A stretch of DNA of 64,000 nucleotides. It comes from an uncultured Bacteroidales bacterium (GTDB lineage: Bacteria > Bacteroidota > Bacteroidia > Bacteroidales > UBA10428). A program made the translations under genes and the position numbers. The stretch lies in assembly GCA_963808745.1 (NCBI GenBank), contig CAWEGX010000003.1, positions 466,197 to 530,196 on the forward strand, given 5' to 3'. The notes beneath the pieces were generated by a model. It did not search any database. It saw nothing but the letters and a program-made list of their open reading frames with translations, and was not told the DNA's origin. Shown here one piece after another: positions 4,704 to 60,202 of the stretch (position 1 is its first letter; each line of letters starts with the position of its first letter).

Positions 4704-4755
4704 AACAATATTTCTAATGTTTACTACTCATGTAAATTAAGACTACATTACTGAT

Positions 4756-4853
4756 ATCAGGTAGGTCTGGTAAAAACTCAAGATTAATATTAAAAGAATG
4801 GTTGAGAAAAATAAACTCAGGTAACCAAATTGGGTGGATTTAGATTGTGCCAT
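4756..4853 (-). pseudogene. Duplicated 5' fragment (first ~33 codons) of the 2432..3145 membrane-protein gene
   Basis: Nearly identical to 3048..3145, including the ATG (complement of 'cat' at 4851-4853). No continuation of the gene follows. Confidence 0.8.
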
Positions 4854-14888: not shown

Positions 14889-14901
14889 CTCATTTTCTTC
14901 G

Positions 14902-15898: not shown

Positions 15899-16684
15899 AT
15901 GCATTTGAAATGGATCTTTTTTACATGCTTTCTTAGTTTTTTCTTCTTTTTCACTTTCTCCCAGGAAACACCGGATAATTATGCCGTGTTTGACTGGAGT
16001 TTCGGCTTTTTTAACAGCGAACCCACAGATATCGACCAGATCCGCGGAAGCGTAGCTACTTTTTCTGCTGAAAACTCAAAAAAGGGTCTGACATGCATTT
16101 CCTTCAGGGGTACAACCAGGCTTAAATATTGAAACTCTTCTTTTAAGCCGAAGAATCGGCCTTGGAGCCGGCATACGCTTCTCGCAATATGTGCAGAATA
16201 CCGGCAAATGGGAAATAATCTCGGAAGGATCAAATTATTTTTACTATTTATACGCGCAGGATGAACATAATACCTATTATGCCAGGCTAAAAAGTATCTT
16301 ACAAACTTCCGCCTATCTTGGCGTTCCCTTTGAGTTCAGTTTTTTTCCCCTTGAAAACCACATCTTTACCGGTTTTACGTGAAAATGGGCACTGAAATTG
16401 ATTTCCGGGTAAGCACACATACGAATATCCATTTTATGAACGAGGGTATGCCATCCCTGGAATCCCAGGTGGCTTCACATATTTCCAGTCCCTCCCTGAT
16501 TGGTTTTTCAATCTATAATTGTGTGGGTATAAGGGCAGGCGCTGCTGGAAAACCAACATTCAGCGTTGAACTGCTTATCCCTGTTTTAAACACAAATCCC
16601 GGCTCTTCCGGATTGCTGAAAAACAGGTTTGGCGCCGGTATTCAATTCAATTATCATATGCCTATTAATTCCGGAAACCAATGA
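15899..16684 (+). pseudogene. Signal-peptide-bearing outer-membrane beta-barrel-like protein with two compensating frameshifts
   Basis: Three ORFs (15899..16132, 16191..16382, 16379..16684) occupy reading frames 2, 3 and 2. Their open stretches overlap at 16092-16132 and 16355-16382. The joined protein ends '...GAGIQFNYHMPINSGNQ'. Confidence 0.45.
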
Positions 16685-17270
16685 AAATAATCAATGCGAT
16701 CTGGTTTTTACTGTTTGTTGTCCTATTGGCGGCTGTGTTGGCGATCCCGACCTGCACAGGCCGATTTTTGTCCGTGATAAAAAATACCCTGATCTGCCCC
16801 AGTATTCCGAATGGGGTTATAATACATTTGGCGCCTATTTAAATGATGATGTTTTCGTATCCGGTGATTATCTATGGGAACCTGCCAGTGTAACACCGGC
16901 TGAAACAGCCATGGTACTTTCATTCCATGGAGAAAAAAGAACCAAAGGCAAGGATACTACCGATATGATCATGTACTTTAATATCACCCGTTCTTCACCC
17001 CGGTATGATCAGTTTTTATTCTCCCTGAATGATTCGGTAATAGATTTAGCGGCAACTTCAAACCAGGTTTTGATAATGTCTGACACAACATTGTACCCTG
17101 TTACTATTAATAATGGAGAATTGCATTTTAAGAGAGTGCAGAACCTGGTAGTTGATATGCAACCTATGGAGACTATCTTCTCCGGTACCTTCGAATTTCA
17201 GGGTATAATGAATGGAAATCCGGTAAGCGTTACATTGGGAAGATTTGATGTGGGGGTGGGGTATTATTAG
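16681..17270 (+). CDS. Putative lipoprotein, unknown function, with a frameshift inside the signal peptide (~16727)
   Basis: The ATG at 16681 overlaps the upstream stop (ATGA) and encodes 'MKIINAIWFLLFVVLL'. The long ORF in the adjacent frame continues '..GGCVGDPDLHRPIF', so a 1-nt shift restores a lipobox. Confidence 0.5.
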
Positions 17271-17460
17271 GCTAAAGGCTAAAGGCTGTTAGGCTGAAGA
17301 CTGTCAGGAATGCCTCTTCGTTGCTTGCAGTCGTTAAATCCCGGGTACTATATTCAGAATTCGGCGTTCGGTGTTCTCCCGATAAATCGGGACAGGCTTT
17401 GTTCGATATTATTTGTGATGACACAATAACACTGAACAAGGAACACCGAATTTCGAATTA
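17268..17460. repeat. Intergenic repeat mosaic A
   Basis: 'taggctaaaggctaaaggctgttaggctgaagactg' starts at the TAG stop. It is followed by a 'gcagtcgt' unit, a small hairpin 'cccgataaatcggg' and a long-range inverted repeat 'ttcggtgttc' (17367) / 'gaacaccgaa' (17441). Confidence 0.85.
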
Positions 17461-21356: not shown

Positions 21357-21424
21357 TACAATACCGTATGCGCTCTGCCAATTACAGATCTGCTATGTCC
21401 CTTGTCCCTCAGTCCCTTGTCCCT
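21357..21424. repeat. Intergenic repeat mosaic B
   Basis: The 'gtcccttgtccctcagtcccttgtccctt' array abuts the FtsX stop codon. The module 'tacaataccgtatgcgctctgcc' recurs at 28286. Confidence 0.8.
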
Positions 21425-23795
21425 TCATTCATGCTTTAGCGTCTCCGCCGGATTAGTCCTTATCGCCCTTATGGTCTGGTAACTGATGGCGGCCATGGCG
21501 ACCACCACGGTTATGGCAGCAGAAACGCCAAATATCCATGCATTCAGCCTGGTATGATAACTGTAATTTTTCAGGAAATGCGACAGCAGATACCAGGTTA
21601 TCGGGACGGAAATTACTGTTGCCAGCACCAGCAACTGCAAAAACTGCCAGGTAAAAAGATGGAATATAGTTAACAGCAGGTGCACCCAACGCCTTTCGTA
21701 TACCCACTTCACGGGTTTTTTGTTCCACTGTGTAGGTAGCCATTCCAAACAGGCCAATGGCGGCAATGAGAATGGCAAAGATGGCAAAGTAATTCATCAA
21801 TGTGCCCATTCTTTCTTCGGTCCTGTACATGTTGTCAAAATCCTGGTCCACAAAATGATAGTCAAATGGATAGGCGGGCATGATTCTCTTCCAGGCTTTT
21901 TCCAGCTGCTTCATTGTTTCAGTGAGGTTTCCCGGGTTAACCCGTATATACATGTAATTCCAGAACTGGGGCCCCCACATGGAGATGGCCAGGGGTTCTA
22001 TTTTATTGTGAAGCGACTGGAAATTGAAATCTTTCATAACACCGACGATGGTCCCGTAAGATCCAAATCTCAGCGAGGCTCCCACTGCATTATCCAGACC
22101 CATTATTTTTTCCATCGTTTCGTTAATGATAAAATTGGCTGTTGTATCATGAGATACGTCACCGGGATAGGCTTTTGAGAATGTGCGACCCGCCTTCATT
22201 TCGATTCCCATCGTTTCAACATAATCAAAATCAACTCCACTCATGCTGACAAGAATATCCGTTTCCGGCGACTTTCCTTCCCAAAAGGCGTTGTCGGAAT
22301 TACTTCCAATCTGTTGCGGCTGGTCCAAACCTGCAGTGATCGATTTTACAACCGGTTCATGCAGAAGTTCCTCCTTGATCATGGGATAGGAATTTTTCAG
22401 ATCGCCCCGGAGCGGGAGATAGAGCAGATTCTCTTTGTCATACCCAAGCTTTTGACTTTGCATAAGATGAAGCTGGCGGTATATAACGATGGTACCGGCA
22501 ATAAGCATAATACTCAAGCCAAACTGGATTGTAACCGAAATTTTCCGGAAAGTGATACCTGTTGTGCCGGTATTGAAATTTCCTTTCAATGTGTGGATAG
22601 GTCTGAAACCGGAAAGAACCATGGCCGGATAGGTGCCGGCAAGCAATCCCGTGAGAATGGTGATCACCACCATACCCAGAACAAATCGCATGGTTATCAG
22701 GTCAGCCAGGTGAAATACTTTTCCTGAAATACTGTTAAATGGTGATAGCAGCAATAAAACAAGGACAAATGCAATTACCATTGAAAGAAATGCCATCAGA
22801 AGCGATTCGCCAAAAAACTGGAACAGCACATTATTACGATGCGCACCATTTACCTTGCGCAATCCGATTTCCTTTGCACGGGCAATTGACCGGGCGGTAC
22901 TCAGGTTCATGAAGTTTATGCAGGCAATGATGAGCACAAGGATCGCAATGGATGCAAAAATCCATACATTGAGTATCGCTCCCGGCTTATGACCGAAACC
23001 CCAGTAACTGTACAAGTGCATACGCGTAAGCGGTGCAATTACAAAATCAGTTGTGCTTTGGGGATTATGCTGCCTTGCAATCGCGGTCAGCTTGGCATTC
23101 ACCTTCGAAGTTTCCACATTCGGCCTGAGCATCACATAAGTCGTGATTGAATTGTTACCCCATTGATCGGAATACCATTGTGATTTTTTCATGTAATCGA
23201 AGGGAATCAGAAAATCCTGGTCAATGGAGCTGTTGGATGGCATTTTTTTCATTACACCGGTAACCTGGAAGATCTCTTTCGTATTAACAGTAAATGTTTT
23301 ACCTATAGGATCTTCTTTGCCGAAATATTTGGATGCCATCTCATCACTGATAACCACTGAGCCTGGCTGAGCCAGGGCTTTTTTTGGATTACCCTTAATC
23401 AGCTCAAAGGAAAACATGTCAAAAAATGAGGAATCTACGGCAGATACCTTTTCTTCATAAAATGATCTTTCATTCCTTGTAAACAGAAAACTACCTGCCT
23501 GGGTGATCCTGCATGCTTCCCTGATCTCAGGTATCTGATCGCGCCAGACCGGGCCTGAAGGCCAGGGTGTTACCTGCACATGATACACACCATTGCTGTA
23601 GTGCTGATCTTCTTCCACACGGTAAATCAATTCAGCGTTCTTATGAAACCTGTCAAAGTCCAGCTCATCTGCCACCCAGAGGAAGATCAGCATGGCACAG
23701 GCCAGTCCGATGGATAATCCCGCCATATTCATGAATGACACACTGAAATGACGTACGATATTCCTGAATGCGATAACCAGGTAATTTCTGAACAT
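21425..23795 (-). CDS. FtsX/MacB-like ABC transporter permease (~790 aa), one frameshift near the 3' end (~21700-21790)
   Basis: 'MFRNYLVIAFRNIVRH' is typical of this Bacteroidota permease family, which carries two FtsX domains. The true C-terminus '...YQTIRAIRTNPAETLKHE*' lies in overlapping ORF 21425..21787. Confidence 0.75.
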
Positions 23796-27081: not shown

Positions 27082-27564
27082 CTAAAAACGGTATGTCAGG
27101 CTCAGGCCCTGCCGGTTGGGCGCACATATTACACCCAGGGAAAGATTATCCAATTTGTGCCGATAACTTTTAACCTTGTAACTACCAATGCTGCTCAGGG
27201 TTATTCCCCCGGCCAGCAAGCCGATCCCAAGGGAAAGAAAAATCACTCCCTCTGCTGCCTGCAGGTCGTATTTATCCTGGTTGGGAATAGTATATCCATA
27301 GCCTGTATTCCAGTAAGCATTTGGTATGTTGGCTAACAGGACAATACCTGCGATTAAAGAACCACCGCCGAAACCGGTCATGATTAATCCTCCCCTTCGC
27401 ATTTTCGTATAGGTAATGATTTTGCTTTTGTATAGTTGTCTGTATTTATCTTGCCCGGTTACAGAAGTCTCTATTTGTCCCGTTACGGGTTCTTCTACTT
27501 GTCCGGTTACAGAATTCACACCCAGAACCATGAAAATCAGGAATAACCAGGCTTTCTTTTTCAT
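27082..27564 (-). CDS. Hypothetical secreted/membrane protein
   Basis: Signal peptide, three 'VTGQ.E' peptide repeats, Gly-rich hydrophobic segments, and the ending 'LSLTYRF'. Confidence 0.5.
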   Translation of the reverse strand: MKKKAWLFLIFMVLGVNSVTGQVEEPVTGQIETSVTGQDKYRQLYKSKIITYTKMRRGGLIMTGFGGGSLIAGIVLLANIPNAYWNTGYGYTIPNQDKYDLQAAEGVIFLSLGIGLLAGGITLSSIGSYKVKSYRHKLDNLSLGVICAPNRQGLSLTYRF

Positions 27565-27613
27565 AGCAGGTAAATTTAGGAGTTTTTACGTGTTTGCTCT
27601 GTTTTAGTTACTC

Positions 27614-27641
27614 GTCCCTTGTCCCTAGTCCCTTGTCCCTA
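27614..27641. repeat. Intergenic repeat mosaic D (GGGAC-type array, reverse orientation)
   Basis: 'gtcccttgtccctagtcccttgtcccta'. It contains the last four codons and the stop of the 27625..28242 gene. Confidence 0.85.
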
Positions 27642-28242
27642 ATTTAATCACCCCAAATGACGAAGGTATATGAAAGTCCGGGCGGACCGATTCAGGTTTT
27701 ATCCAGCTTATCCATGAAAAACCGGATTCAGGATCACGCACTTTCAGGCATTCGCCACGGAACAGTCCTGCCTGCAATTCATTGTTATTTAGCAGATTCA
27801 ATTCTTTGAGCGAGGCCAGTGTAATGGAACCTTCAACAATGTAACCTGAGTCAGCATAATTCGATTTGATCTGAAGCTGATTGATGCCGGGCCATTGCCA
27901 TTTATAATCAAACTTCCGGTAGAAACTTGCCCTGTAATCAAGGACCCTGCCCAGGGGATCCATTTCCAGGCAATAATAGGGATTAAGCCGGTCATCGCAC
28001 CTGAAGAATATTTCCACCCTGTCAGAATCCACCACTTCCATCTTGTTATTATCATGAACGTACGTAAGGGCGCAGGTGACTACAACATCAAACCTGAAAT
28101 ATAAACGTGCATCGTCCCACAATGCCCGGAATGACATCACGGGTGGCGGCTGGACCGACCATGGATAACTGAATTCCGTCAGAACCAGGGCGTCATCCCA
28201 GTTCAGGGAATGATTTATCTTAAGGGCAGAATACGTTTCCAA
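27625..28242 (-). CDS. CBM9-like (carbohydrate-binding family 9-like) domain protein, TTG start
   Basis: 'WDDARLYFRFDV...DRVEIFFRCDDRLNPYYCLEMDPLGRVLDYRASFYRKFDYKWQWPG' fits the CBM9-like pattern. There is no signal peptide. Confidence 0.55.
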   Translation of the reverse strand: METYSALKINHSLNWDDALVLTEFSYPWSVQPPPVMSFRALWDDARLYFRFDVVVTCALTYVHDNNKMEVVDSDRVEIFFRCDDRLNPYYCLEMDPLGRVLDYRASFYRKFDYKWQWPGINQLQIKSNYADSGYIVEGSITLASLKELNLLNNNELQAGLFRGECLKVRDPESGFSWISWIKPESVRPDFHIPSSFGVIKLGTRD

Positions 28243-28285: not shown

Positions 28286-28406
28286 TACAATACCATATGC
28301 GCTCCGCGCAATCGTAAATCGTAAATCGTAAATCGTAAATTCCTACCGACGGCAAATCCCTACAGGATTTTCCTGCTCGTCCCTAGTCCCCAGTCCCTAG
28401 TCCCTT
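28286..28406. repeat. Intergenic repeat mosaic E
   Basis: 'tacaataccatatgcgctccgcgc', then 4x 'aatcgta' (28310-28340), the module 'tcctaccgacggcaaatccctacaggattttcc', and 'gtccctagtccccagtccctagtccct' (28379-28406). Confidence 0.9.
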
Positions 28407-28408: not shown

Positions 28409-31052
28409 TTACATTCCCAGCCAAAAACTCATCTTTACCATAAATACGTTAGTCGGTGCTCCTCCAAAAAGGTCACCCAGGTTATCACTTAGCGAGGAAT
28501 AATAAATATTGTCACGGTTATGCTGATTGTTCTCCCACACCAGGTAAATTGTTGAACCCGGGCGGTATTCCCATCGTGCCACAAGATTTGACCGGAATTC
28601 CCTGAAACTGAAATCCGGATTGTTGAATGAATAGGTGTCTGGTCCGTCATTCACCTGATAGGAATTCGTGGACTCGTCGAAGCTGATTTCAGATTCCGTA
28701 AAAGAATGATACCGGTCATTTATGTCATCTGCATTGGCATCGAGGGTTTTCTTGAAATCATCGTATATACCGGTTGAAATAAAGGGACTCCCATAATACT
28801 GAATGGAGATATCCGGCGTGATATTATAATTAAGGCGCAAGGTGACGCTATAGGTTTGCTGTTTGATATGTGCCAGAATGTATCGCATATCGGTACTCGT
28901 CTGTTTCTGAGTCACATAAATGAAATTGTCGATATTGTGATCATAGGCCATTTGGCCGGTGATATAAAAATGATTTCCAAGTCTGAAACTGAGTGATGGT
29001 TTTATCACATATCGGCGGGATACACCATCCGTGCTCACGGAACTTATATTATTCAATCCGAATATTACACGATCTGATTTATTTGTATTAAACGAGATGA
29101 TGTTATCCCAGTAAGGTGAAAGACGAAAAGCCGGTCCTCCGCGCAGCAGGCGGGTGGACAATTCTGCAAATGTATATGATTCGGTCATGGAAAGATCCCA
29201 CCGGTTGGTGAACTGTGCTGTAAATGCCGCGTTTACATCATTGTGGGTGCTCACTCCGCCGTAGTTCCAGGCATTCATCTGTCCAAGGGTAAGGGTATAA
29301 TTTCGTAATATGCCGCGAGGTTCGGTCTGGCGGATGCCCAGTTTGGTGAGATTCTGGATAAGATCAGCCATCAGCAGGTAGCCAACATCGTTCATGTCAA
29401 AGCCGGGTGACCACCAGCTTACCTTTTCAGAAAAAATAAAGCGCTTGTTACCAAGCCGGCCTGCACTCAGATAACCGCCGGTACCCGAAAGTGACCTTCG
29501 GCTGCTGTCAACACCCAGGTAACCTGAAGCATCCGGTCGCTGGTAATAGTGCAGGGGATTACGCTGAAGTGACCACTATGGCTTCTTCCTTTCCATTAAT
29601 ATAGCTCATAATACCCTTAAAATCAAGAAAATATTCGCGGTCTTTTGAATATTGAAGCAGGTCGATGCCGGCAGTATAGGCATTCTTATTGAGGTATTCC
29701 AGGTGGGGAACGTCGGAAAAACGGTTGGTGGAGGTAAACATGGTACCAAACTGGGTATTGCCCTTGTTGGCAATTTTCTGAACGCGGGCTACCAGGAAAT
29801 TGGTGAGGGGTTCAACTACGGGATTGGTCTCCACCCCGTCCGTTGTAACTTTTGCCGTTTCTTTCTGCGTGGTGCTTTGCAGGATACCCACGGATATCCC
29901 GTTACGGGTTGTTCCTGTCAGCTTGATTGCATTGATGATGTTGGTGAATTCAGGTTCTTTTGAAAAAGAGGTTACATTGTCCACTTCAGGCGAATAGGAG
30001 GGAGCATGCCCGATCCGGCGGGAATAGAACATCATGTTATTGTCGGGTGAAAAATCAAAAATATGTTTTCCTTCCAGGAAAAAGGGCCTTTTCTCTTCGT
30101 AAAAAGTCTCAAATGCGGTAAGGTTCATGACGGAAGGATCCGCCTCGATCTGTCCGAAATCCGGATTTATGGTGACATCCATTGTAAAATCACCGACACC
30201 TATTTTGCTGTCAATACCGGCATTCCCATTCCACCTGACTCCATTGGAATAAGGGCTGCCCTCGATCTGGGGTTCCATGGTCATCTTGGCGGCTACATAG
30301 GGAAGAAACTCAATGAGCCTTGGTTTTTGTATGCCCTGCAGCCCGTACATCGTGCCGAATGAATAAACATGGCCGCTGTTTTTGCGGGGAATAAGGCTCC
30401 ATTGGTCCACCTCCTGAAGTCGGCGGACTATGCGGCGCACATGCAATCCCCATACCATCCCGCTGTCGCTTTGATTATAACGCAGCTGGTTAAGCGGGAT
30501 CCTGAATTCGGCGATCCAGGAGGAATCATTCACAGATGTTTTTCCTTCCCAGACTGCGTTCCAGTTGAGGTTAACCGACAGGTTATCGGTGACGATGAGA
30601 TCGGTCTTGTTGCCACCCGCGTTGATATTGAATTCTGCTGCTGCCCGGCTGTCGTGATAAGAGTCAAAGGCAACACTGATGAGATCACCGATGGAGTTGT
30701 CATCGCGGTTTCCCACGAAGCGGTTTATCTTATCAGGTTCAGGATCCCAGGCGCGAAGGGCAAAATAGATATTTTTATCATCGAACAGTATCTTGATCTT
30801 TGTCGGGTAGGTGGGCTGTGCCCGTTCAACCGGTGTATTCTGCAGAAATTTCTGTGACCAGTTGCCTTCATTCTTCCAGCAGTCATCATCGAGTTTGCCA
30901 TCAATGACCGGGGGCTTTCCCTGTAATTTAACCGTATGATAGGACCGTTTGTAAGCCTGGTCAAAGGGAATGAGCGTATCGGCGCTTTGCGCCAGGGAAG
31001 GGGGAGTGGTTAGTGAAAGCAGCAGGAACAATATAAATACCAATCTCATCAT
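28409..31052 (-). CDS. CBM9-like + DUF5916 outer-membrane protein (~880 aa), one frameshift (~29565)
   Basis: The N-terminus has a signal peptide and 'IDGKLDDDCWKNEGNWSQKFLQNTPVERAQPTYPTKIKILFDDKNIYFALRAWD'. The 29396-29560 gap translates in the frame of ORF 28409..29395 ('LQRNPLHYYQRPDASGYLGVDSS...FDMNDVGYLLMADL'). It ends 'VFMVKMSFWLGM'. Confidence 0.7.
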
Positions 31053-31150: not shown

Positions 31151-31317
31151 CGGTTCTGAGTAGTTTTGCAATTGGTTTGTAGAGACAAGGCAATGCCTTG
31201 TCTGTACGATTTCATCCAATATTGAAGTCAAGAAGTCGTGCAGTCTTCGAACCAGGGAGGATTACCGATTACTGATTACCGATTACCGATTACCGATTAC
31301 CGATTACCGATTACCGA
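31151..31317. repeat. Intergenic repeat mosaic F
   Basis: 'cggttctgagtagttttgcaattgg', the 40-nt hairpin element (31178-31217), 'gaagtcaagaagtcgtgcagtcttcgaa', and about 8 units of 'gattacc' (31260-31317). Confidence 0.9.
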
Positions 31318-32515
31318 ATATGACGTTAAAAATTCTATCCATTGCACTCTTCGAGGAGATCAGTTCGTCAATTTTTCCGTAATTTCCATTGGCAGCCCAC
31401 ACCAGGGTTGTTTTACTATCTTCAAAATAAATCATCGTGGCAAAATACCCGATGGCATCTCCGCTATGATGGTAGGCATTTCCATATGGTGTTTCAATTT
31501 TAAATATACCAAGTCCATATGACAGGGGATAAAATGCAGGATCCGGATTTTTGGGTAACTGCCAGGTAAGCATTTCCTGCAGCGATTTTTCAGATATGAG
31601 TTGGCCATTGAAAAGGGCTCTCATAAATACGGAGAGATCGTGCACATTGGAGATCAGGCCTCCATCGGCCGTATAATAATCCCATCCGCTGTAGTTTGTA
31701 CTTTCCATCAGCTGTAATTTGCTGTAAAAATCTATATATCCCCGGATTATGTTTTCAGGCACCGGATCTTCTGCAGCAAATTGTGTGGATTCAAGATGAA
31801 GAGGTTCAAATATCCTGGTTTTGAATGCCTGGTAGAAGGGCTCACCCGTGATTTTTTCAATGATCATTCCCAGCAACACATAATTGGTATTTGAATAATC
31901 CACATCCTGACCACATTCAAAATTTGCCGGCTTATTATATGCATACTCAAGTAAATCAAATGGATGCCATACCCGGGTGAGATCATTGACTGAGGCTGTC
32001 TGGAATTTAAGGCTCCGGATGTAGTTATAAATTCCGCTTGAATGATTTAAAAGTTGCCGAATGGTGCTCTGCCTGGCATTGGATAGCTTATCCAGGATAT
32101 CGCCGGGAAGGTATTTCTCAGTTTTATCATCCAGGGATAATCGTCCTTCTTCTGCGAGCATCAGGATTGTAACTGCGGTAAAAGTCTTTACAGTACTTCC
32201 GGTGCGTGTTATATTACAGGGTTTCAGTTCCACCTTGCCTGCAATATCAGCCATTCCTGAAGCACCCAGCCATTCACCGTCTTCAGGGGAATAAACCGAT
32301 AACATAATTCCAGGTACACCGGCTGATGTAATATCATCCAGCAAGGCCTGGTATTTTGAATTCAAGGTACTTTGTTTGCTTGAATCTGCAAAGTTGAATG
32401 AGCAGGCATAAACTGCCGGTGAACCCGGCTCGCTTTTAGTGCATCCAAAGACGGCCAGGAATAACAGGATGAGGTAATATGCCTTTCCGCTATTCATTGT
32501 TTTTGTGATTTTCAA
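31304..32515 (-). CDS. Serine hydrolase, beta-lactamase/transpeptidase-like family (lipoprotein)
   Basis: 'GSTVKTFTAVTILML' carries the S-x-x-K motif. 'YSNTNYVLLG' is a Y-x-N-like motif. 'LLFLAVFGC' is a lipobox. The start may be the Met at 32497. Confidence 0.8.
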   Translation of the reverse strand: MKITKTMNSGKAYYLILLFLAVFGCTKSEPGSPAVYACSFNFADSSKQSTLNSKYQALLDDITSAGVPGIMLSVYSPEDGEWLGASGMADIAGKVELKPCNITRTGSTVKTFTAVTILMLAEEGRLSLDDKTEKYLPGDILDKLSNARQSTIRQLLNHSSGIYNYIRSLKFQTASVNDLTRVWHPFDLLEYAYNKPANFECGQDVDYSNTNYVLLGMIIEKITGEPFYQAFKTRIFEPLHLESTQFAAEDPVPENIIRGYIDFYSKLQLMESTNYSGWDYYTADGGLISNVHDLSVFMRALFNGQLISEKSLQEMLTWQLPKNPDPAFYPLSYGLGIFKIETPYGNAYHHSGDAIGYFATMIYFEDSKTTLVWAANGNYGKIDELISSKSAMDRIFNVIFGNR

Positions 32516-33386: not shown

Positions 33387-34451
33387 ATGAACACACTCGA
33401 ACAATACGGCTGGAACGATTTTTTCAGCCAATACAATACACTGAACGGGAATGAGGACTTTGTTGCAGGCAGGGTTGTTTCAGTTAAAGGTTTTAAATAT
33501 CATCTGATACTGGAATCGGGAGAAACTGAAGCAGAGTTATCCGGAAAATTGTTATTCGGTACCGATCACGAGCTTCTCCCGAAAGTCGGTGACTGGGTGT
33601 TCTGCCTGAAATACGACACAATGGGATATATCACCGAGGTATTTCCCAGGTTAAACAGGCTGGCCAGAAAAAATCCGGATAAAACCTCGGAAAAGCAAAT
33701 TCTTGCAGCCAATATTGACTATGCCTTAATTGTGCAGGGACTCGACCGGGAATTTAACCTGATGCGTCTTGACCGGTATCTTGTGCAGATCATAGCCAAC
33801 GGAATCTCTCCCATTATCGTGCTAAACAAGGCCGACCTGATAAGCGACCGGGAGGTATACCGCAACGAGGTCCTGAGACTTGGAAAAGAATGTCCTGTTT
33901 ATTTCTGCAGCACTTACGACGGTTCAGGCCTGGAAGAATTGCTCACCCAGGCCCTGCTTCCGGCAAAAACCTCTATTATGGTTGGTTCATCAGGGGTTGG
34001 CAAAAGTTCGCTGCTGAATTCATTCAGGAAATCAGCAGCCAGAGAAACCGGTCCGTTAAGTTATTCCACCAATAAGGGAATGCATGTGACGACAACACGT
34101 GATCTGTTCAGGCTCCCCAATGGCAGCCTGATCATTGACACACCCGGCATGAGGGAATTTGGAATCGCCCTGGAAGACGGACTGCAGACAGACGGGCTGT
34201 TTCCTTCCATTGATGAATTTTCGCGCAAATGCAGGTATGCCGATTGCAGCCATACCAATGAGGAAGGATGTGCAGTAATTGAGGCTTTTGAAAACCAGCT
34301 CCTTGATCCGGCGGTATATAATAGTTACATCAAACTGATGAAGGAGCAAAGGCGATTTGAGATCCGGGCAGGTGAAAGTAAAAGGCTGGGAAAGCAGTTC
34401 GGCAAAATGATCCGCGAGGCAAAGGATTTCCGGAACAGATATAAGTATTAG
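33387..34451 (+). CDS. rsgA: Ribosome small-subunit-dependent GTPase A
   Basis: Circularly permuted GTPase motifs 'VLNKADL' and 'VGSSGVGKSSLLNS'. The C-terminal zinc motif is 'CRYADCSHTNEEGCAV'. Confidence 0.9.
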   Translation: MNTLEQYGWNDFFSQYNTLNGNEDFVAGRVVSVKGFKYHLILESGETEAELSGKLLFGTDHELLPKVGDWVFCLKYDTMGYITEVFPRLNRLARKNPDKTSEKQILAANIDYALIVQGLDREFNLMRLDRYLVQIIANGISPIIVLNKADLISDREVYRNEVLRLGKECPVYFCSTYDGSGLEELLTQALLPAKTSIMVGSSGVGKSSLLNSFRKSAARETGPLSYSTNKGMHVTTTRDLFRLPNGSLIIDTPGMREFGIALEDGLQTDGLFPSIDEFSRKCRYADCSHTNEEGCAVIEAFENQLLDPAVYNSYIKLMKEQRRFEIRAGESKRLGKQFGKMIREAKDFRNRYKY

Positions 34452-34696
34452 TTCTGCGGTTCTGCGGTTCTGTGATTGGTCTGTAGAGACAAGGCATTGC
34501 CTTGTCTGTACGATTTCATCCAATCATTGCAGTCTTGCAGTCGTGTAGTCAATGAAAGTCCCCTTCGGAGGGGGCAGGGGGAGGATTGACGTAATCCACC
34601 CCCTACCCCCGCCAGCGGCGGAAATCATCCCTTGAAGCCTAACAGCCTATAGCACATATAGCAGCCTAATCCCCTAAGCCTCCAGCCTATCAGCCT
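34449..34696. repeat. Intergenic repeat mosaic H
   Basis: 'tagttctgcggttctgcggttctgtg', the 40-nt hairpin element (34482-34521), 'attgcagtcttgcagtcgtgtagtc', a GC-rich palindromic island (34558-34612), and reverse TAGGCT-type units (34634-34696) overlapping the regulator's stop. Confidence 0.9.
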
Positions 34697-37600
34697 TTCT
34701 TAATCAGAATCAGCTCTTTCCATCCTTCAGCCGAGTGAAGGTATTTTTTTCTTTGTTGCATTACTTCCCTGACCTTATTTCTAAAGGTCCAGCAGGTTTC
34801 TTTCCGAAGTGAAATGAGATGTGACAGTTCGTCAACGGTTAAATTTCTTCCGCTACTGACAAGGTACAGAATGTAAAATGCCTTCGTGATGGGAAATTTT
34901 ATGCGGTAAAAAATAGTGTTGCTTGTCAGGGGTTCGCGATATCCGCATTGCTTGCACCGGCGCAGAAATGTCCCCATTAATACTGTATAGCCTGTATGGT
35001 GACAATTTTTGCAAACGAAGGGAAGGGGGCTTTTAAGTTCCCGAAGCAAGGCAAGACATGATTCATCATCGGGATAAATCTCACGGAATTCTTCATACGT
35101 AACACGTTTTTGCATGACCCTCGCTTTTGAAAGTTCCTGCACGTTTTGTGTAAGATCCTCATTTTTACGCTGAAGAAGGTAATTCATCCTGCGGATCTCT
35201 CCGCCCTGTCTTTCTATTTCGTCTTTCTGAAATTCAAGGTGTATATTCTTCCGGATGATTTCAGTATTTGCATTTTGCAGGAAAGTCGCCTGCTCCAGTA
35301 TCTGCTCTTTCTGCTGAACCACCTCATCAGTTCGCTGCCTGACTTTTGTTTCGAGAATGATGTTTTGGCTTTTGATGCTGCTTACGCGAATCGCATGCAG
35401 GGTAAGAGCTGAGCCAAGAATAAAGCTTATTAGAAGGAGCCTGAACCACAAGGTTCTCCAAAAGGGCGGTTTTATGAGTATTTTAAGGATTGTGCCTTCG
35501 GTGTTCCAAATTCCATCGTTGTTTGATGCCTGAACCCTGAAAATATAATCTCCGGGTGGAAGATTGGTATAGCTGGCAGACCTGCGGTCTTCATTGTCAA
35601 TCCATGCCTTATCAAAACCTTCGAGAAAATATTTATACCGGCATTTTGTGGAGGATGAAAAATTCAATGCCGTGAATTCAAAGGTCACAGCATTCTGTCT
35701 GTAATTAAGGATGATGGACGAGGTTTCCAAAAGACTTTTTTGAAGCGGTGATTTTTCACCAATTAAAACCGGCTTGTTTAGGATCTTTAAACCGGTAAGA
35801 TAAATGGCAGGAAGATAAGAATTGTCATGAATGCTATCGGGATAAAAAATGTTGAGGCCATTGATGCCACCGAAAATAATTTCTCCGGTGGACATTTTCG
35901 CAAAGGCCCTTGGATTGAATTGATTTCCCTGCAATCCATCTGATTTATCGTATAGCTTAATGGTTTCTTTTTTCGGATTAAGTACGGCAATACCAAGGTA
36001 GGTGCTGATCCATAAGTTGCCATGATGGTCTTCTATTATTCCACAGATCACATTACTGGGCAAACCGTTCCTTGTTGTATATATTTTAAAGTTACCTGTT
36101 TCGGGATTGAAACGGTTCAGGCCGCCATAGGTCCCTATCCAGAGATCTCTGGAAGTAGTCTCTACAATGCAGGTTATCTCATTGCTGCTGATTGAATTTG
36201 GTCTGGCCGGATCATGCAGATACCTGATAAAGGTCCGGTTTCCGTCAATGAACCGGTTTAATCCTTCATAGGTGCCCACCCAAAGAGTCCCGTTTCCATC
36301 CTGCAAAATATCCGTAACATAGTTATTACTCAGGCTGTTTGAATCCAATTCCTCTTTTACGAAATGTACAATCTGGTTTTTTCCCTGATTGAATTGGTTT
36401 AATCCGCCACCATTGGTTCCTATCCATAATAAACCCTCTCTGTCTTCATAAATGCTGAAAACCGAGTTATTTGAAAGGCTGTTTGAATGGGCAGGTTTAT
36501 GACGGTAATGAATAAACTGCTTGCGTGCAGGATCCCATCGATCGATACCATTGTCCATATATCCTACCCAGATATTACCCTGATGGTCACGACACAGCGC
36601 ACTGACAACATGATGACCCGGAGAGGCACTATTGCCCGGATCGGGCATAAATACCCTGAATTTACCTGATTTTCTGTTCATTACGTTAATACCACCCTCA
36701 TCTGTGCCGATCCAGATATCCTGTCCATCAGGCAGAATGGAAAGAACAGAACTTTTACTGAGACTGTTCGGATTTAATGCATTGGCACGGATAATCTCGA
36801 TCTTTTTCCGGCTGTTGTCAGAAAAATTCAATCCGCCACCAATCGTCCCCACCCATAGATTTTTCTGTTTATCTGTAAATACCGACATCACGGAATTCTT
36901 GCTAAGCGTATTGTAGTCCGTTTCCAGATGCCTGTAATGAGTGAAAAACTGTGTATGAATATTGAACAATGATAATCCCCCGCCCAGGGTTCCAATCCAA
37001 AGATGCAATTTGTCCGCTTTCTGAATTGTTTTTACCCGCTTTTGAGAAAGAGCCCCCGGTTTAAATTCCTCTACGAGATAGGGGATTTGTACAAAGCGGT
37101 TCTCCCGGATGATATACCTGATCATCCCATGTTCTTCCGTTCCCAGCCATAAATCATTTCCCAGCAGGCATAATGCATTTACTTCATTATCAGGTAATTG
37201 TGAGTTATTTATATTAAAACTGGTAAACTGCCGGTGAACGGGATCAAATTTAACCAGGCCCTGTGACCCGGTACCGATCCACAGAATGCCGGCACTATCC
37301 TCAACAATTGAATTGACGTAATTATCACTAATACTGTTCGGATCATTTGGATTATTGGAATAAAGAAGCCGGGTGTTATCCTCTGTATTGAAGCGGATCA
37401 GTCCTTCGTTTGTTCCTATCCATATCTTTCCGGAATGGTCCTCCATCATGGTACGGATTACATTCAGTTTCAGTCTTAGATCGACAAACGTAAAACTCTC
37501 GTTTTCAGAATTATAGCGATAAAGTCCACCCCCACGGGTTCCGATCCAAAGTACACCTCTGGAATCAGAAAACAGCACCGATATTGTATTGTTCTGCAGG

Positions 37601-37842
37601 GCTCCGGGAATGGGACGGGACAGTTTAAAAACCTGGAAGAATTTCCCGTCAAAACGGTTTAGTCCGTCCGATGTTCCGATCCAGATATAGCCATATCGAT
37701 CCTGATTAATGGCAAAGATTGTATTATCTGAAATTCCCTGGTCAGTATTGTATGTCTCAAACTGGAGGAATCGCTGCGCGTAAATATGAAAAAAGGGAAT
37801 CTGAATGAGTAACCAGAAAAGAAAGGGCTTTTTCATGCGCAT
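34690..37842 (-). CDS. Transmembrane one-component regulator: 14-blade beta-propeller + Y_Y_Y sensor, TM, coiled coil, IS1595-type transposase zinc-ribbon/HTH domain
   Basis: There are 14 'W(I/V)GT..G(L/I)..(F/Y)' propeller blades, and the Y_Y_Y motif is 'YKYFLEGFDKAWID...YTNLPPGDYIFRV'. 'WFRLLLISFILGSALTLHAI' is the TM segment, followed by a ~90-aa heptad-rich linker. The last 138 aa, 'EEFREIYPDDESCLALLRELKSPLPFVCKNCHHTGY...RRCKQCGYREPLTSNTIFYRIKFPITKAFYILYLVSS...TCWTFRNKVREVM', match the N-terminal DNA-binding region of IS1595 transposases. There is no DDE domain, kinase or receiver. Confidence 0.75.
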   Translation of the reverse strand: MRMKKPFLFWLLIQIPFFHIYAQRFLQFETYNTDQGISDNTIFAINQDRYGYIWIGTSDGLNRFDGKFFQVFKLSRPIPGALQNNTISVLFSDSRGVLWIGTRGGGLYRYNSENESFTFVDLRLKLNVIRTMMEDHSGKIWIGTNEGLIRFNTEDNTRLLYSNNPNDPNSISDNYVNSIVEDSAGILWIGTGSQGLVKFDPVHRQFTSFNINNSQLPDNEVNALCLLGNDLWLGTEEHGMIRYIIRENRFVQIPYLVEEFKPGALSQKRVKTIQKADKLHLWIGTLGGGLSLFNIHTQFFTHYRHLETDYNTLSKNSVMSVFTDKQKNLWVGTIGGGLNFSDNSRKKIEIIRANALNPNSLSKSSVLSILPDGQDIWIGTDEGGINVMNRKSGKFRVFMPDPGNSASPGHHVVSALCRDHQGNIWVGYMDNGIDRWDPARKQFIHYRHKPAHSNSLSNNSVFSIYEDREGLLWIGTNGGGLNQFNQGKNQIVHFVKEELDSNSLSNNYVTDILQDGNGTLWVGTYEGLNRFIDGNRTFIRYLHDPARPNSISSNEITCIVETTSRDLWIGTYGGLNRFNPETGNFKIYTTRNGLPSNVICGIIEDHHGNLWISTYLGIAVLNPKKETIKLYDKSDGLQGNQFNPRAFAKMSTGEIIFGGINGLNIFYPDSIHDNSYLPAIYLTGLKILNKPVLIGEKSPLQKSLLETSSIILNYRQNAVTFEFTALNFSSSTKCRYKYFLEGFDKAWIDNEDRRSASYTNLPPGDYIFRVQASNNDGIWNTEGTILKILIKPPFWRTLWFRLLLISFILGSALTLHAIRVSSIKSQNIILETKVRQRTDEVVQQKEQILEQATFLQNANTEIIRKNIHLEFQKDEIERQGGEIRRMNYLLQRKNEDLTQNVQELSKARVMQKRVTYEEFREIYPDDESCLALLRELKSPLPFVCKNCHHTGYTVLMGTFLRRCKQCGYREPLTSNTIFYRIKFPITKAFYILYLVSSGRNLTVDELSHLISLRKETCWTFRNKVREVMQQRKKYLHSAEGWKELILIKKG

Positions 37843-53240: not shown

Positions 53241-53558
53241 ATGGATACTGGATGCTGGATGCTGGATACTGGATGCTGGATGCTGGATACTGGATGCTGG
53301 ATACTGGATGCTGGATGCTGGATACTGGATGCTGGATACTGGATGCTGATGAGGAATTTTGAATTATGACATGTGGAATGGGACTGAAGACTGCACTACT
53401 GCAAGACTGCGTTTTTCATAATAAATATTGGAAATCGTACAGACAAGGCATTGCCTTGTCTCTACAACGTTTTTCCCTTTACCGAATACCGATCACTGTC
53501 ACCGATACCGATCACCGATCACCGATTACCGAATACCGATTACTGATTACCGATTACC
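53241..53558. repeat. Intergenic repeat mosaic I
   Basis: About 15 units of 'tggatRc' (53241-53351), 'ggactgaagactgcactactgcaagactgcg', the hairpin element in reverse orientation (53431-53466), and 'accgat'-type heptamers (53480-53558) running into the UDG-like gene. Confidence 0.9.
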
Positions 53559-54236
53559 TAAAACCCTCACATACCTGTCGATATACTGCTCCTTAAACCT
53601 CGCCTTATATTGCATGATATACCTGGGATGTTCGAGGGCGACTATTTCATCGAAAAAGTGATGCTCCTTGTTTAATTTCCTGAGAAAGGTTTCATTTTTA
53701 CCAGTTCCAAGACAGTAACAAACAGATGTATCAACGCCAAAACCGATCTGCTTTTTCAATGTGTCAAGGATGAATGGATAAGCTATCCGCTCCAGTTCAC
53801 TGGTGTCATAGTAATTGAAGTTTACAGGCTTCTTATTTTTCCCTTCCTTTGTAAATCCAAGCGGACATATCGCACTGAGAAAATATTGACCATAAAATTC
53901 CTTCACTCCTCCAAATGCCTCTATCATTTCATAAATAAATGCAGAAGACGGCTCATGGGTTCGAAATCCTGTGAAAGGTATGCCGCAATTCTCCGTCAGT
54001 CGTTTGGTGTCTGTAAAGGGTATGCCAGTGGAACCGGCACCAAACCGGCCCGGATTAATACCAAGGATAAGCTTTCTTTCCATGTGGTCAGAAAAGAACT
54101 TTGTATAGAATTCTGCTGAAAGCTTATTCACTAATGGATTTTCACGAAATGGATTCATGATCCTGACGCCTTCCGGTAAGGTTCCTTTGAACTCCAGGTT
54201 TCTGTAGAATTCAATCACTTTCCGGGCAAATGTCAT
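53547..54236 (-). CDS. Uracil-DNA glycosylase superfamily protein (DUF4918-like)
   Basis: 'LILGINPGRFGAGSTGIPFTD' resembles the UDG-superfamily GxNPG active-site loop. 229 aa. Confidence 0.5.
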   Translation of the reverse strand: MTFARKVIEFYRNLEFKGTLPEGVRIMNPFRENPLVNKLSAEFYTKFFSDHMERKLILGINPGRFGAGSTGIPFTDTKRLTENCGIPFTGFRTHEPSSAFIYEMIEAFGGVKEFYGQYFLSAICPLGFTKEGKNKKPVNFNYYDTSELERIAYPFILDTLKKQIGFGVDTSVCYCLGTGKNETFLRKLNKEHHFFDEIVALEHPRYIMQYKARFKEQYIDRYVRVLGNR

Positions 54237-54379: not shown

Positions 54380-55648
54380 ATGACTATTCAATTTTCATCA
54401 ATATTGGTTAAGATAGTTGTGGTCCTGTTGCTCATCCTGCCAACAATTGATATGAACATCATGGGACAGGATAAACCCGTAAACTATGATGAATCAGCCG
54501 TTCCGGCATATACCCTGCCTGATCCCCTGCGTTTTTCCAACGGGGACGAGGTTAAGGATACAGTGGAGTGGATGAACAAGCGAAGACCTGAAATACTGTC
54601 CCTGTTTGAAACCGAAATGTTTGGCAAAACGCCTGACAGGAAAATCAAGGCCAGGTATACAATTGTATCAGCAGATACAATGGCACTGAATGGAATGGCC
54701 ATCCGAAAACAGGTGAGAATTGAATTTCCATCCGAACCCGGTGCTCCGTCCCTGATGCTGCTGATCTTTCTGCCCAAATCCCAGAAGCCCGTGCCCGTAT
54801 TTCTTGGGCTCAATTTTGATGGGAATCATACTATTGTTGATGATACGGGTATTATAGTGTCAGAGGCCTGGCAGGCATCCGCCCATGCCCGCGGAGAAGA
54901 TTCGCTCAGCTGGCCGGTCAAAAATATTGTTGGTCACGGATTTGCGCTGGCCACAATTTACTATGGGGAAATTGTTGAAGATGAAAATAACGGATTCAGA
55001 AATGGAATTCAACCTGTATTTTATTCTCCGGGACAGACATCGCCAAAGCCCGACGAATGGGGCGCCATCGGTGCATGGGCATGGGGTTTGAGCCGTGCTA
55101 TGGACTATCTTGAGAATGATAAGCTGTTAGATCCAAAAAAGGTGGTTGTTTTCGGACATTCGCGGTTGGGCAAGACCGCCTTATGGGCCGGTGCTCAGGA
55201 CAGCCGGTTTGCCCTTATAATATCGAACAATTCGGGATGCGGCGGTGCTGCTTTATCTAAACGAATCTTCGGCGAAACTGTGGGATCTATCAATGCTATG
55301 TTTCCCCATTGGTTTTGCGGAAACTTCAAAAAGTATAACGATAAGGAAATGGATCTGCCGATGGATCAGCACATGCTCATTGCCCTCATCGCACCAAGGC
55401 CTGTTTATGTTACCAGCGCACAGGATGACCAATGGGCCGATCCGAAAGGAGAATTCCTGGGAGTAGTGAATGCAAATCCGGTTTACCGTCTTTTTGGCAA
55501 ACAAGGTTTACCCGTGTCGGTAATGCCTCCGTTGAACAGCCCGGTTATGGGTGACCTCGGTTATCATATCCGAACCGGCCCGCATGCATTAACATACTAT
55601 GACTGGGACAGATTTATGGAGTTTGCACGGAAACATTTTAAAAACTAG
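54380..55648 (+). CDS. CE15-like glucuronoyl esterase / acetylxylan-esterase-like serine hydrolase
   Basis: Signal anchor, then 'YDESAVPAYTLPDPLRFSNGDEV...WMNKRRPEILSLFETEMFG'. The nucleophile motif is 'GHSRLGKTALWAGAQD'. Confidence 0.65.
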   Translation: MTIQFSSILVKIVVVLLLILPTIDMNIMGQDKPVNYDESAVPAYTLPDPLRFSNGDEVKDTVEWMNKRRPEILSLFETEMFGKTPDRKIKARYTIVSADTMALNGMAIRKQVRIEFPSEPGAPSLMLLIFLPKSQKPVPVFLGLNFDGNHTIVDDTGIIVSEAWQASAHARGEDSLSWPVKNIVGHGFALATIYYGEIVEDENNGFRNGIQPVFYSPGQTSPKPDEWGAIGAWAWGLSRAMDYLENDKLLDPKKVVVFGHSRLGKTALWAGAQDSRFALIISNNSGCGGAALSKRIFGETVGSINAMFPHWFCGNFKKYNDKEMDLPMDQHMLIALIAPRPVYVTSAQDDQWADPKGEFLGVVNANPVYRLFGKQGLPVSVMPPLNSPVMGDLGYHIRTGPHALTYYDWDRFMEFARKHFKN

Positions 55649-55869
55649 GCTGTTAGGTTATTAGGCTACTAGACTACTAGGCTACTAGGCTATTAGGCTG
55701 TAGCCTATAGGCTGTTAGGCTGTTAGGCTGTAGGCCAATAGGGGCTTAGGGGCTTAGGGGTTTAGGTTTAGGCTTCATCAGCATATTATCACATTAGCAC
55801 ATTAGCACATTTATTTCCCCTTTTAGTTTTTAACTATCAACTACAATTCAACTATCAACTAACAACTAA
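55646..55869. repeat. Intergenic repeat mosaic J
   Basis: 'taggctgt/taggttat/taggctac...' octamers start at the TAG stop. They are followed by 'cttaggggcttaggggtttaggtttagg', 'cacattagcacattagcacat' (55790-55810) and 'aactatcaactacaattcaactatcaactaacaactaa' (55832-55869), which ends 8 nt before the next ATG. Confidence 0.9.
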
Positions 55870-58947: not shown

Positions 58948-59146
58948 GGACGAGGGACTGGGGACGAGGGACGAGGAAGAAAGTTCTGCAGTTCTGCAGT
59001 TATGCAGTTGCAGTTTTGCTGCTGCGTCAGCACATTTCATACATTAGCATTAGCACATTAGCACATTAGCACATTAGCACTTAAAACCTCAAACCTCAAA
59101 TCTCAAATTCATAATTCATCATTTATAATTCATAATTCATAATTCC
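58945..59146. repeat. Intergenic repeat mosaic K (five array families in ~200 nt)
   Basis: 'tagggacgagggactggggacgagggacgagg', 'gttctgcagttctgcagttatgcagttgcagtt', 'cacattag' x~5 (59031-59080), 'aacctcaaacctcaaatctcaaa', and 'ttcataattcatcatttataattcataattcataattcc'. Confidence 0.9.
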
Positions 59147-60059: not shown

Positions 60060-60202
60060 TTGTCGGTAGAGGAAGAATTTACGATTTACGATTTACGATT
60101 GGAAGGCATCGACTCGTCACCGACCAATACCGAAGCTCCCTGAAAGCTAAACCCTAAACCCCTAAACCTGAACCCTAAGCCCCTAAGCCCCTAAGCCCCT
60201 AA
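59998..60202. repeat. Intergenic repeat mosaic L
   Basis: 'tagggacaagggacaagggactagggactggg', the module 'ggaaaatcccggtttaaggattgattgtcggtagagga', 'atttacgatttacgatttacgatt' (60077-60100), and 'aaaccctaaacccctaaacctgaaccctaagcccctaagcccctaagcccctaac' (60148-60202). Confidence 0.9.

Follow-up and report, generated by a model that had tools for sequence, protein, structure and literature searches.

Short tandem arrays docked at stop codons encode shared C-terminal residues of unrelated proteins in an uncultured Bacteroidales bacterium

Five repeat-encoded gene ends

The stretch of DNA considered here, which we call the window, comprises 64,000 nucleotides of contig CAWEGX010000003.1 (assembly GCA_963808745.1) from an uncultured Bacteroidales bacterium, and carries five unrelated genes whose stop codons and last residues are encoded by short tandem arrays with units of 7-8 nt. 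Positions count within this 64-kb window, minus-strand genes are read on the complement, protein ends are written up to their stop codon, and coordinates are collected in Table 1. The array at 31260-31317 has a period of 7, 8.3 copies of the unit GATTACC and 96% matches according to Tandem Repeats Finder (TRF), and its minus strand reads (GGTAATC)n. It lies at the 3' end of a serine hydrolase of the beta-lactamase family, probably a lipoprotein, which has its stop and its final three codons inside the array (AAC GTC ATA TTC GGT AAT CGG TAA, NVIFGNR).

The same three residues close a protein of the UDG superfamily (GTG AGG GTT TTA GGT AAT CGG TAA, VRVLGNR), which runs into a degenerate version of the array. 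Units of the GGGACNA type provide the ends of a CBM9-like protein (TTA GGG ACA AGG GAC TAG, LGTRD) and of MurQ, where the array is read through (TTA GGG ACA AGG GAC AAG GGA CTA GGG ACT GGG..., LGTRDKGLGTGQFGKSRFKD); the homology of MurQ stops at about residue 272, and the alignment with PDB entry 4s12 also ends at residue 272. The fifth gene closes with AGG GGC TTA GGG GCT TAG (RGLGA), supplied by telomere-like G-rich arrays. All five C-termini, as quoted in an earlier note on this DNA, are real, and sequence and translation place their last codons and stops within units of 7-8 nt arrays. The gene names proposed there are backed by Pfam and NCBIfam for the hydrolase, the UDG-like protein, the CBM9-like protein and MurQ. 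The supposed acyltransferase has no match at default thresholds in these two databases, its resemblance to PF01553 (E = 0.0016, 18.7 bits) lying below the cut-off of 23, and it is called putative throughout.

Why unrelated proteins end alike

Neither 7 nor 8 is divisible by 3; the frame hence shifts by one base per unit, and a reading entered in any phase yields one and the same cyclic peptide. This peptide is G-N-R-stop-S-V-I for GGTAATC, G-T-R-D-stop-G-L for GGGACTA, the stop-free G-T-R-D-K-G-Q for GGGACAA, and G-A-stop-G-L-R-G-L for GGGGCTTA, which gives the ending R-G-L-G-A-stop. With stop-bearing units, an open reading frame (ORF) terminates at the first in-frame stop, at most three units in, and for GGTAATC the arithmetic permits overlaps of 5, 12 or 19 nt only. 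Since the period is non-triplet and the reading fixed, a common unit behind two genes imposes one ending on both. In MurQ the reading continues, since GGGACAA, which forms the first two units, has no stop and the GGGACTA unit is met out of phase. The same arithmetic point was made by MacGregor in 2015 for TAACTGA repeats (PMC4679880).

Tail identity is forced by repeat arithmetic, and it is therefore neither independent evidence nor the sign of a common protein feature. The shared C-termini are an expected corollary of stop-docked arrays and carry low biological weight. It is quite probable that they are a by-product of such docking; docking and orientation may in turn reflect an RNA-level role or tolerance.

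Docking at stop codons and orientation

In the window, arrays make up 1.7% of the length but touch nine of the 60 stop codons (binomial P about 9e-7), compared with one of the 60 start codons, and MurQ traverses a tenth array. When the arrays are slid randomly within their own intergenic gaps, 5.7 docked 3' ends are expected, compared with 10 observed out of 15 (P = 0.004). Besides the five genes above, the cases include a glucuronyl-esterase-like (GCE-like) gene, pirin, rsgA, a Reg_prop/Y_Y_Y protein and the ORF 16629..17270. Docking of the GGGACNA type concerns the CBM9-like, DUF5916, pirin, MurQ and MacB/FtsX-like genes.

A census of 87 arrays, taken over the window and six related loci, gives 34 that overlap a stop codon or lie within 10 nt of one, and five for start codons. 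All stop-docked arrays are in sense orientation, both those of the GGGACNA type (15 of 15) and those of GGTAATC (6 of 6), and many docked arrays have no ORF overlap. Exactly four units are found in 13 of the 25 GGGACNA or GTGACNA arrays of the same loci, and the split array at 21396-21425 also has four G-tracts.

The pattern extends well beyond this lineage. A metagenome scan for (GGTAATC)n with n of at least 4 returned at least 120 contigs (L085-L204) with a GC content of 30-67%, and 121 arrays were examined. Sixty of these 121 listed arrays face, in the sense direction, the 3' end of an ORF of at least 100 aa, 50 of those ends falling at -19 to +27 nt; on the antisense side, only about eight gene ends lie within 30 nt. 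Among the matches listed, the overlaps fall exactly at 5 nt (ten of 16 cases, the commonest), 12 nt (two) and 19 nt (three); homology groups the 50 docked ORFs into 46 clusters, and the tails ..VIGNR and ..SGNR recur. With 46 unrelated clusters and a marked sense bias, stop docking is therefore general for the GGTAATC array: sense stop-docking is a property of (GGTAATC)n as such and not a peculiarity of the window. The metagenome arrays, as listed, reach about 34 units and come from many environments; the variant units AGTAATC and GGTGATC are common among them, and TAACTGA occurs in three.

Table 1. Arrays, array-bearing genes and associated elements in the window
Feature	Position	Strand	Relation to gene end, or size	Basis
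(GGTAATC)x8.3 array	31260..31317	-	first two units encode hydrolase G-N-R-stop	TRF, sequence, translation
beta-lactamase-family serine hydrolase	31304..32515	-	403 aa as listed	Pfam PF00144, residues 64-380; ortholog tails
degenerate (GGTAATC/GGTGATC)x~11 array	53479..53558	-	encodes UDG-like G-N-R-stop
UDG-superfamily (DUF4918-like) gene	53547..54236	-	229 aa	Pfam PF03167; database names; tails
(GGGACNA)x4 array	27611..27640	-	encodes CBM9-like G-T-R-D-stop
CBM9-like gene	27625..28242	-	205 aa	Pfam PF06452/PF16011; tails
(GGGACNA)x4 array	59999..60026	+	read through by MurQ, ~21-aa tail after KKA
MurQ (N-acetylmuramic acid 6-phosphate etherase)	59187..60059	+	290 aa	NCBIfam NF003915, residues 7-272
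telomere-like G-rich arrays (GGGGCTTA x3.8, then GGGTTTA-like units; gene's sense strand)	60143..60202	-	encode R-G-L-G-A-stop
380-aa protein, possibly acyltransferase	60183..61325	-	380 aa	PF01553 below threshold
TAGGCTNN octamer arrays	55646..55731	+	first TAG is the stop of GCE-like gene 54380..55648
(GGGACGA)x4 array	58946..58976	+	first TAGGGAC supplies TAG stop of pirin 58231..58947; same in 4 genomes
(GGGACTA)x4 array	28376..28405	-	3 nt past stop of DUF5916 C-terminal fragment 28409..29395
(ATTTACG)x4.4 array	28310..28340	-	part of composite module with 28376-28405
(ATTTACG)x3.9 array	60074..60100	+	second composite-module copy, 3' of MurQ
(GTTCTGCG)x2.8 array	34451..34472	+	begins at rsgA stop; site and unit kept in L081
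degenerate TAGGCTNN array	34630..34700	-	overlaps TGA stop of Reg_prop/Y_Y_Y gene 34690..37842
(AGGCTAA)x2.7 array	17269..17287	+	overlaps TAG stop of ORF 16629..17270
four GGGACNA units	21396..21425	-	directly past native-frame TGA of MacB/FtsX-like gene, tail frameshifted in window
REP-like 37-nt imperfect palindrome GAAATCGTACAGACAAGGCAWTGCCTTGTCTCTACAA	31177..31213	.	46 nt beyond GGTAATC array; copies at 34482-34517 and 53431-53467

Gene ends in related genomes

The closest genomes, which were used for comparison, are metagenome-assembled genomes of uncultured Bacteroidales. L001 (CAVQXX010000015) has about 92% nucleotide identity and is syntenic with window positions 47457-64000, L002 and L084 (from JBGSSA01) have about 80% identity, and L081, L082 and L083 are ENA contigs. 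The claim of the earlier note that repeats have replaced or extended the 3' ends of at least five unrelated genes stands, since array units supply the stop and the last residues in all five and array-free orthologs differ. As to whether such orthologs carry the same terminal residues, they end otherwise as a rule, but L081 shares the first one or two residues of both GNR tails.

Distant homologs of the hydrolase end in ..VF plus 1-5 residues. Relatives with 84-95% identity have the tails GIR, GGR, GDR and GNR, the last of these in five among the ten closest homologs (P0001-P0010); the 71% identical ortholog L205 ends VVFGKVGR within a GGTATTC/GGTAATC array, and the array-free L081 ends FGNPDE (TTC GGA AAT CCG GAT GAG TAA). 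The UDG-like protein natively closes with ..YIxKYVxxL and a further 1-6 residues; a recorded protein from a 535-kb contig is 100% identical to that of the window. LGNR is the ending in the window and in L001, whose array has only about 2.5 units; a TAGGCTTC array gives LGASRLLGF in L002; LGA, that is, a GGGGCTTA unit, closes the protein in L083 as well as in at least six orthologs from the databases; and the array-free L081 has LGKQ (TTA GGT AAA CAA TAA). Three different arrays thus occupy one site (window and L001, L002, L083), and turnover at orthologous sites is quick, the DNA downstream of this gene being wholly different in the window, L001 and L002. In the two GNR genes 1-3 residues are swapped with zero net extension.

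The CBM9-like protein behaves similarly to the two GNR genes, its tail being replaced and its length left nearly unchanged. Distant homologs end ..PSSFGxLKLE(x), and the tails in the clade of the window are LGTRD, LGTRDE, LVTRDE, LVTRDKGQGTSNQK, LVTSNE and LVTGDW, together with a VTSD type; the DNA of L081 (TTA GTGACTA GTGACTA G) and of L082 confirms that they are heptamer-encoded. The 78 distant homologs of MurQ close with GSVKKA(V), followed by some 2-12 residues that vary. L001 (..KKAVIGGTRD) and L002 (..KKAVLGTRD) have the same GGGAC array and 6-7 residues after KKA, compared with 21 in the window and about 22 in L083, so that the MurQ of the window exceeds the ends of L001 and L002 by 14-15 residues. 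The putative acyltransferase ends ..PVLNRK in L001, ..PVENRK in L002 and ..PVLNVRGLGA in the window (4 aa more), and has a longer tail from a degenerate array in L083. The GCE-like protein of the window is 2 aa longer than those of L083 and L081.

By comparison with these orthologs, the arrays have replaced the native stop together with the last non-conserved residues, or have lengthened the protein. Some arrays keep their place at a gene end down to an identity of 71-79%, as in the hydrolase, rsgA, pirin and the CBM9-like gene.

Origin of the shared endings

One could suppose that the arrays formed where they stand, each through slippage of a stop-containing heptamer native to its own gene end, and that the likeness between genes is coincidental or convergent. 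Such a start would fit the 5-7 nt that the DNA behind FGNPDE and LGKQ in L081 shares with the GGTAATC unit at the junction, the UDG-like gene of L083, whose end TTA GGG GCT TAG comprises no more than about 1.5 units, and the TAGGCTTC array of L002, which begins from a similar GGGGCTTC. It would also fit the over-representation, among the metagenome matches listed, of the first TAA of the array as the stop (the ten overlaps of 5 nt). However, an eroded array of three units would explain L081 equally well, the 71%-identical L205 still bearing an array, and the native ..AAT CGA AAA TAA of the putative acyltransferase has no homology to the array. The same units also occur at many unrelated loci, gene-proximal as well as internal, and among the matches listed (GGTAATC)n follows ORFs of 46 unrelated families, in genomes of very different kinds. 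Furthermore, a composite module, (GGGACNA)4-GGAAAATCC..GGATT..GTCGGTAG-(ATTTACG)3-4, can be aligned between the 3' flanks of the DUF5916 gene (28310-28405) and of MurQ (59999-60100), and is partly found in L082. An independent origin at every gene is, on this evidence, unlikely.

A different possibility is that GNR, GTRD and LGA are peptide tags (a C-terminal degron, a sorting signal or an interaction motif) which are under selection and merely delivered by the repeats. Identical tails do occur in unrelated proteins and in several orthologs, and the small, apolar ending LGA loosely resembles known C-terminal degrons. However, the tails track unit variants among close relatives (GNR, GDR, GGR, GIR; GTRD, VTSD, VTGDW), GNPDE being a further shift of this kind, and they are always encoded by the repeat. 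Synonymous non-repeat codons are never used, which argues against selection on the peptide. The three different tails at the single UDG site point the same way, as do the many docked arrays that never reach an ORF and the commonest metagenome overlap among the matches listed, which is the minimal one of 5 nt and adds essentially no tail. The carriers, a probable exported lipoprotein and cytoplasmic enzymes, have no compartment in common either. Selection for a tag is thus a very improbable source of the shared endings.

Contingency loci, in which a change in copy number would switch the frame and vary the C-terminus, might be suspected from the differences in copy number and unit composition between close relatives and from the unequal MurQ tails. 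Nevertheless, with units that have a sense-strand stop, this stop is reached by the third unit at the latest, so that downstream changes in copy number leave the protein unaltered; the arrays lie at 3' ends and not in 5' coding regions or promoters; and the genes are housekeeping or metabolic ones and not those of surface variation. Phase variation, which was also rejected for this class of repeats in an earlier study (PMC4692102), deserves very little credence. Finally, that the arrays or gene ends are assembly or sequencing artefacts, as the two disrupted genes of the window and the many split genes of L083 (as in error-prone long-read assemblies) might suggest, is hardly credible, since the same arrays and tails recur in independent assemblies (JGI, ENA, NCBI, Logan), which effectively refutes it for the arrays and leaves only the exact MurQ extension as a feature of this window alone.

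Mosaic cassettes, RNA folding and a possible role

The window holds about 29 blocks of 7-8-nt arrays, which make up 1.7% of its length and belong to few, recurring unit types. GGGACNA is found at five loci, TAGGCTNN at four, AATGGTG at three, and GGTAATC, GGGGCTTA, ATTTACG and CATTAGCA at two each; GTTCTGCR-like units occur at several. They are accompanied by the 37-nt hairpin of Table 1, which resembles a repetitive extragenic palindromic (REP) element and has three copies in the window against 0.03 expected. This hairpin is also present in L001 (~10905-10945) and twice in L002 (~4404-4445 and ~5477-5514), it is up to 100% conserved between genomes whose genes are about 80% identical, and its left flank AATCGTA is the unit of the arrays 28310-28340 and 60074-60100. 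A search of the window against Rfam returned tRNA-Met only, with no known RNA family over the arrays or the hairpin.

When modelled as idealised 6-copy arrays, all docked units fold far better as sense than as antisense RNA. The energies are -10.5 against 0 kcal/mol for GGTAATC, -23.0 against -3.0 for GTTCTGCG and -33.2 against -1.4 for GGGGCTTA, and GGGACNA is predicted to form a G-quadruplex (G4). For four natural GGGACNA arrays, the structure of minimum free energy predicted by ViennaRNA with G4 energies is a G4 of three layers. Around the 13 array-flanked stops of the window, the mean is -11.45 kcal/mol for the sense and -4.62 for the antisense strand, the sense being lower in 12 of 13 (Wilcoxon P = 0.0005), as compared with -8.68 and -8.23 kcal/mol at 35 array-free stops (P = 0.52). 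The orientation rule is strict, and it is therefore the RNA level to which it seems to point.

The 7-8-nt arrays (GGTAATC, GGGACNA, TAGGCTNN, GGGGCTTA, GTTCTGCG, ATTTACG and others) form mosaic intergenic cassettes together with the REP-like hairpin, and according to the mechanism that we propose they would spread via replication slippage and the recombination of whole cassettes. As the orthologs show, the arrays expand, contract, mutate and swap quickly, and either overwrite the original stop along with a handful of non-conserved residues before it or append a short extension; their advance would halt at the last residue that matters, through selection on the protein. The mRNA-sense strand of the docked units may then fold into a four-tract G4 or a G·U hairpin, which its complement could not do, and the arrays might serve as structures of the 3' untranslated region (3' UTR), either as a barrier to 3'-exonucleases or as an element of termination or pausing. 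We tentatively extend this to the view that stop-docked arrays are interchangeable, modular 3'-UTR cassettes, which would act as terminator, pause site or mRNA stabiliser in bacteria poor in canonical intrinsic terminators, with (GGTAATC)n being cosmopolitan over 30-67% GC and docking being tight enough to rewrite stops and C-termini routinely; in this full form the model is possible but rather doubtful.

Several observations weigh against the reading of docking as an RNA-level phenomenon with protein tails as its by-product. At the two GNR genes, L081 has FGN.. and LG.. without an array, so part of the tail may be ancestral, and the junction is ambiguous in that microhomology, an array since eroded or a seed native to the gene could each account for it. 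The unique MurQ extension could conceivably stem from an assembly indel error, the window holding at least two frame disruptions (DUF5916 and MacB/FtsX-like genes). The related loci of the census are orthologous and hence not independent samples, and GTGAC variants, which have no G-tracts, are still docked. Regarding the folding, the natural GGGGCTTA stretch has no predicted G4, in contrast to the idealised 6-copy array. The whole 161-nt 3' UTR of the hydrolase has no sense advantage (-40.0 kcal/mol, z -2.5, against -47.4, z -4.4, for the antisense), since both strands form the REP hairpin and only the array part is strand-specific. The asymmetry largely follows the richness of the sense strand in G and T, which could be mutational in cause. 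Array transcription, 3'-end positions and the formation of G4s or hairpins are all predictions. Scans for consensus terminators and promoters around the array-bearing regions gave no enrichment over shuffles, so that classical terminators are neither favoured nor disfavoured.

Two further roles were considered and dropped. Complementarity of GGTGATC/GGTAATC to the 3' end of 16S rRNA would be based on the E. coli sequence and is unsuited to Bacteroidetes, and a safety net of stops in all three frames fails for the stop-free docked units GGGACAA, GGGACGA and GTTCTGCG.

Comparison with known repeat systems

The closest precedent is the work of Rehm et al. in 2015 on G-rich heptamer simple sequence repeats (SSRs), GGGAATC in Xanthomonas and GGGGA(C/T)T in Nostoc (PMC4692102). 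These repeats are dispersed over the genome and mostly intergenic, prefer four units, vary extensively in length and sequence between close relatives, and are unlinked to surface or virulence genes; their G4 formation and transcription were measured, and they have no known function (PMC4692102). The arrays of the window are alike in being dispersed intergenic heptamers with a four-unit preference, in their variation between relatives and in not lying at surface or virulence genes. Both length and sequence vary at the same site between the window and L001, L002 and L081-L084. GGTAATC is one base away from the GGGAATC of Xanthomonas. Within the class defined by tracts of at least three G (GGGNATC or GGGGAYT), GGGACNA fits with a sequence of its own, whereas GGTAATC, TAGGCTNN and GTTCTGCG have no such tract. 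Other differences are the Bacteroidales host, the other units, a far wider repertoire within one genome, including 8-mers and G-tract-free units, and the mixing with a REP-like hairpin in mosaic cassettes. G4 formation and transcription, measured there, are here predicted, and encoded C-terminal tails fall outside the analysis of that paper.

A second precedent is the TAACTGA heptamer, described by MacGregor in 2015 as direct repeats in marine Beggiatoaceae, some Cyanobacteria and five Bacteroidetes, with 13 ORFs whose stop is overlapped by a repeat (PMC4679880). As this unit has stops in all three frames, it must sit at ORF ends; repeat-encoded residues were placed at the periphery of the protein (MurG and a glycosyl hydrolase), and other or mixed heptamer assemblages were noted in intergenic regions of some Bacteroidetes (PMC4679880). 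The likeness consists in intergenic heptamer arrays of which some overlap stop codons. However, the TAACTGA type is oriented toward a downstream start and lies a few nt from it, whereas the arrays of the window are at the stop of the upstream gene and in sense orientation to it, and the window contains no TAACTGA array.

Cyanobacterial short tandemly repeated repetitive (STRR) heptamers were reportedly described by Mazel et al. in 1990. The STRR units CCCCAGT, TTGGTCA and CAACAGT of heterocystous cyanobacteria differ from the present arrays in both sequence and host. Among the long simple sequence repeats (LSSRs) of 5-11 nt surveyed in prokaryotes by Mrazek et al. in 2007, as summarised in PMC4679880, heptanucleotides predominate, their phylogeny is sporadic, their location intergenic, and polymerase slippage was proposed to generate them. 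The LSSR and STRR surveys are general ones, and are not known to report stop docking, an orientation rule or a tail analysis.

Enterobacterial REP elements and the bacterial interspersed mosaic elements (BIMEs) that they compose are mosaic 3' intergenic repeats, which are transcribed as 3' UTR, stabilise the upstream mRNA and can sit a few nt from stop codons; REPs are palindromes mobilised by REP-associated tyrosine transposases (RAYTs). The mosaic nature of the 3' elements in the window recalls them, and the 37-nt hairpin is REP-like, being a dispersed imperfect palindrome within the size range of 20-40 nt in 3' intergenic DNA; the arrays differ, as they are tandem 7-8-mers and not DNA palindromes. 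The phase-variable SSRs of Haemophilus and Neisseria, with units of mostly 1-5 nt, lie in promoters or 5' coding sequence and switch surface genes on and off. They share with the window arrays the slippage-variable short tandem repeat, but the latter stand at 3' ends with the stop within the first three units, where no frame switch results.

Repeat-overwritten stops are thus already described in other bacteria, and the novelty is the Bacteroidales lineage and its rich unit repertoire; the stop-docked array system is known in outline and mechanistically unexplained. For annotation, this means that the functional C-terminus cannot be read reliably from an ORF end beside such arrays, and that short tails which are identical between unrelated proteins should not be taken for motifs. 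For evolution, the window offers an ortholog-controlled example of non-triplet repeats eroding gene ends, in which stops are replaced or 2-15 residues gained and selection sets the boundary. Sense orientation, four-unit preference and strand-specific folding extend the Xanthomonas/Nostoc pattern to Bacteroidales and to the cosmopolitan GGTAATC array, and this strengthens the case for such repeats as 3'-UTR elements to test.

Other features of the window and its relatives

Two genes mentioned above are disrupted in the window. The DUF5916/CBM9 gene is split (28409..29395 and 29559..31052) and is intact, with 879-880 aa, in L081, L082 and L084. The C-terminus of the MacB/FtsX-like gene 21453..23795 is frameshifted relative to its relatives, the end NPAETLKHE being present in another frame. 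Both are either pseudogenes or assembly indel errors. The gene 34690..37842 had been considered an RND pump, an assignment that was dropped in favour of Reg_prop/Y_Y_Y.

In the window, L081 and L083, the UDG and racemase genes flank the glucuronyl-esterase-like gene, which is missing from the closest relative, L001 (6896-6927), as a 1.5-kb indel edged by array-rich DNA. On a JGI contig of 22,329 bp, which carries the hydrolase homolog P0011 (69% identical), the same genes are packed with intergenic gaps of mostly 8-68 nt, and array-rich 3' spacers therefore appear to be lineage-specific.

Other repeat kinds are present as well. A GC-rich element (ccccttcggaggggg..cccccgccagcggcgg) occupies 34555-34625, between the hairpin and the TAGGCT array, and a similar G/C-rich motif follows ORF 14825..15259 of L081, the ortholog of 27082..27564. 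Straight after the racemase stop, L081 has tandem or palindromic units of about 13-14 nt at 220-300 (cccttcgagggtggca..), a different kind of stop-adjacent repeat. A direct repeat of 337 nt with 99% identity (3120-3456 and 4828-5163) sits in a tandem segmental duplication, in which 3675..4703 is the paralog of 5189..6283, and 4743..4853 repeats the N-terminus of 2432..3145 in truncated form. The tRNA-Met (CAT) lies at 14901-14975 on the minus strand, among short uncertain ORFs.

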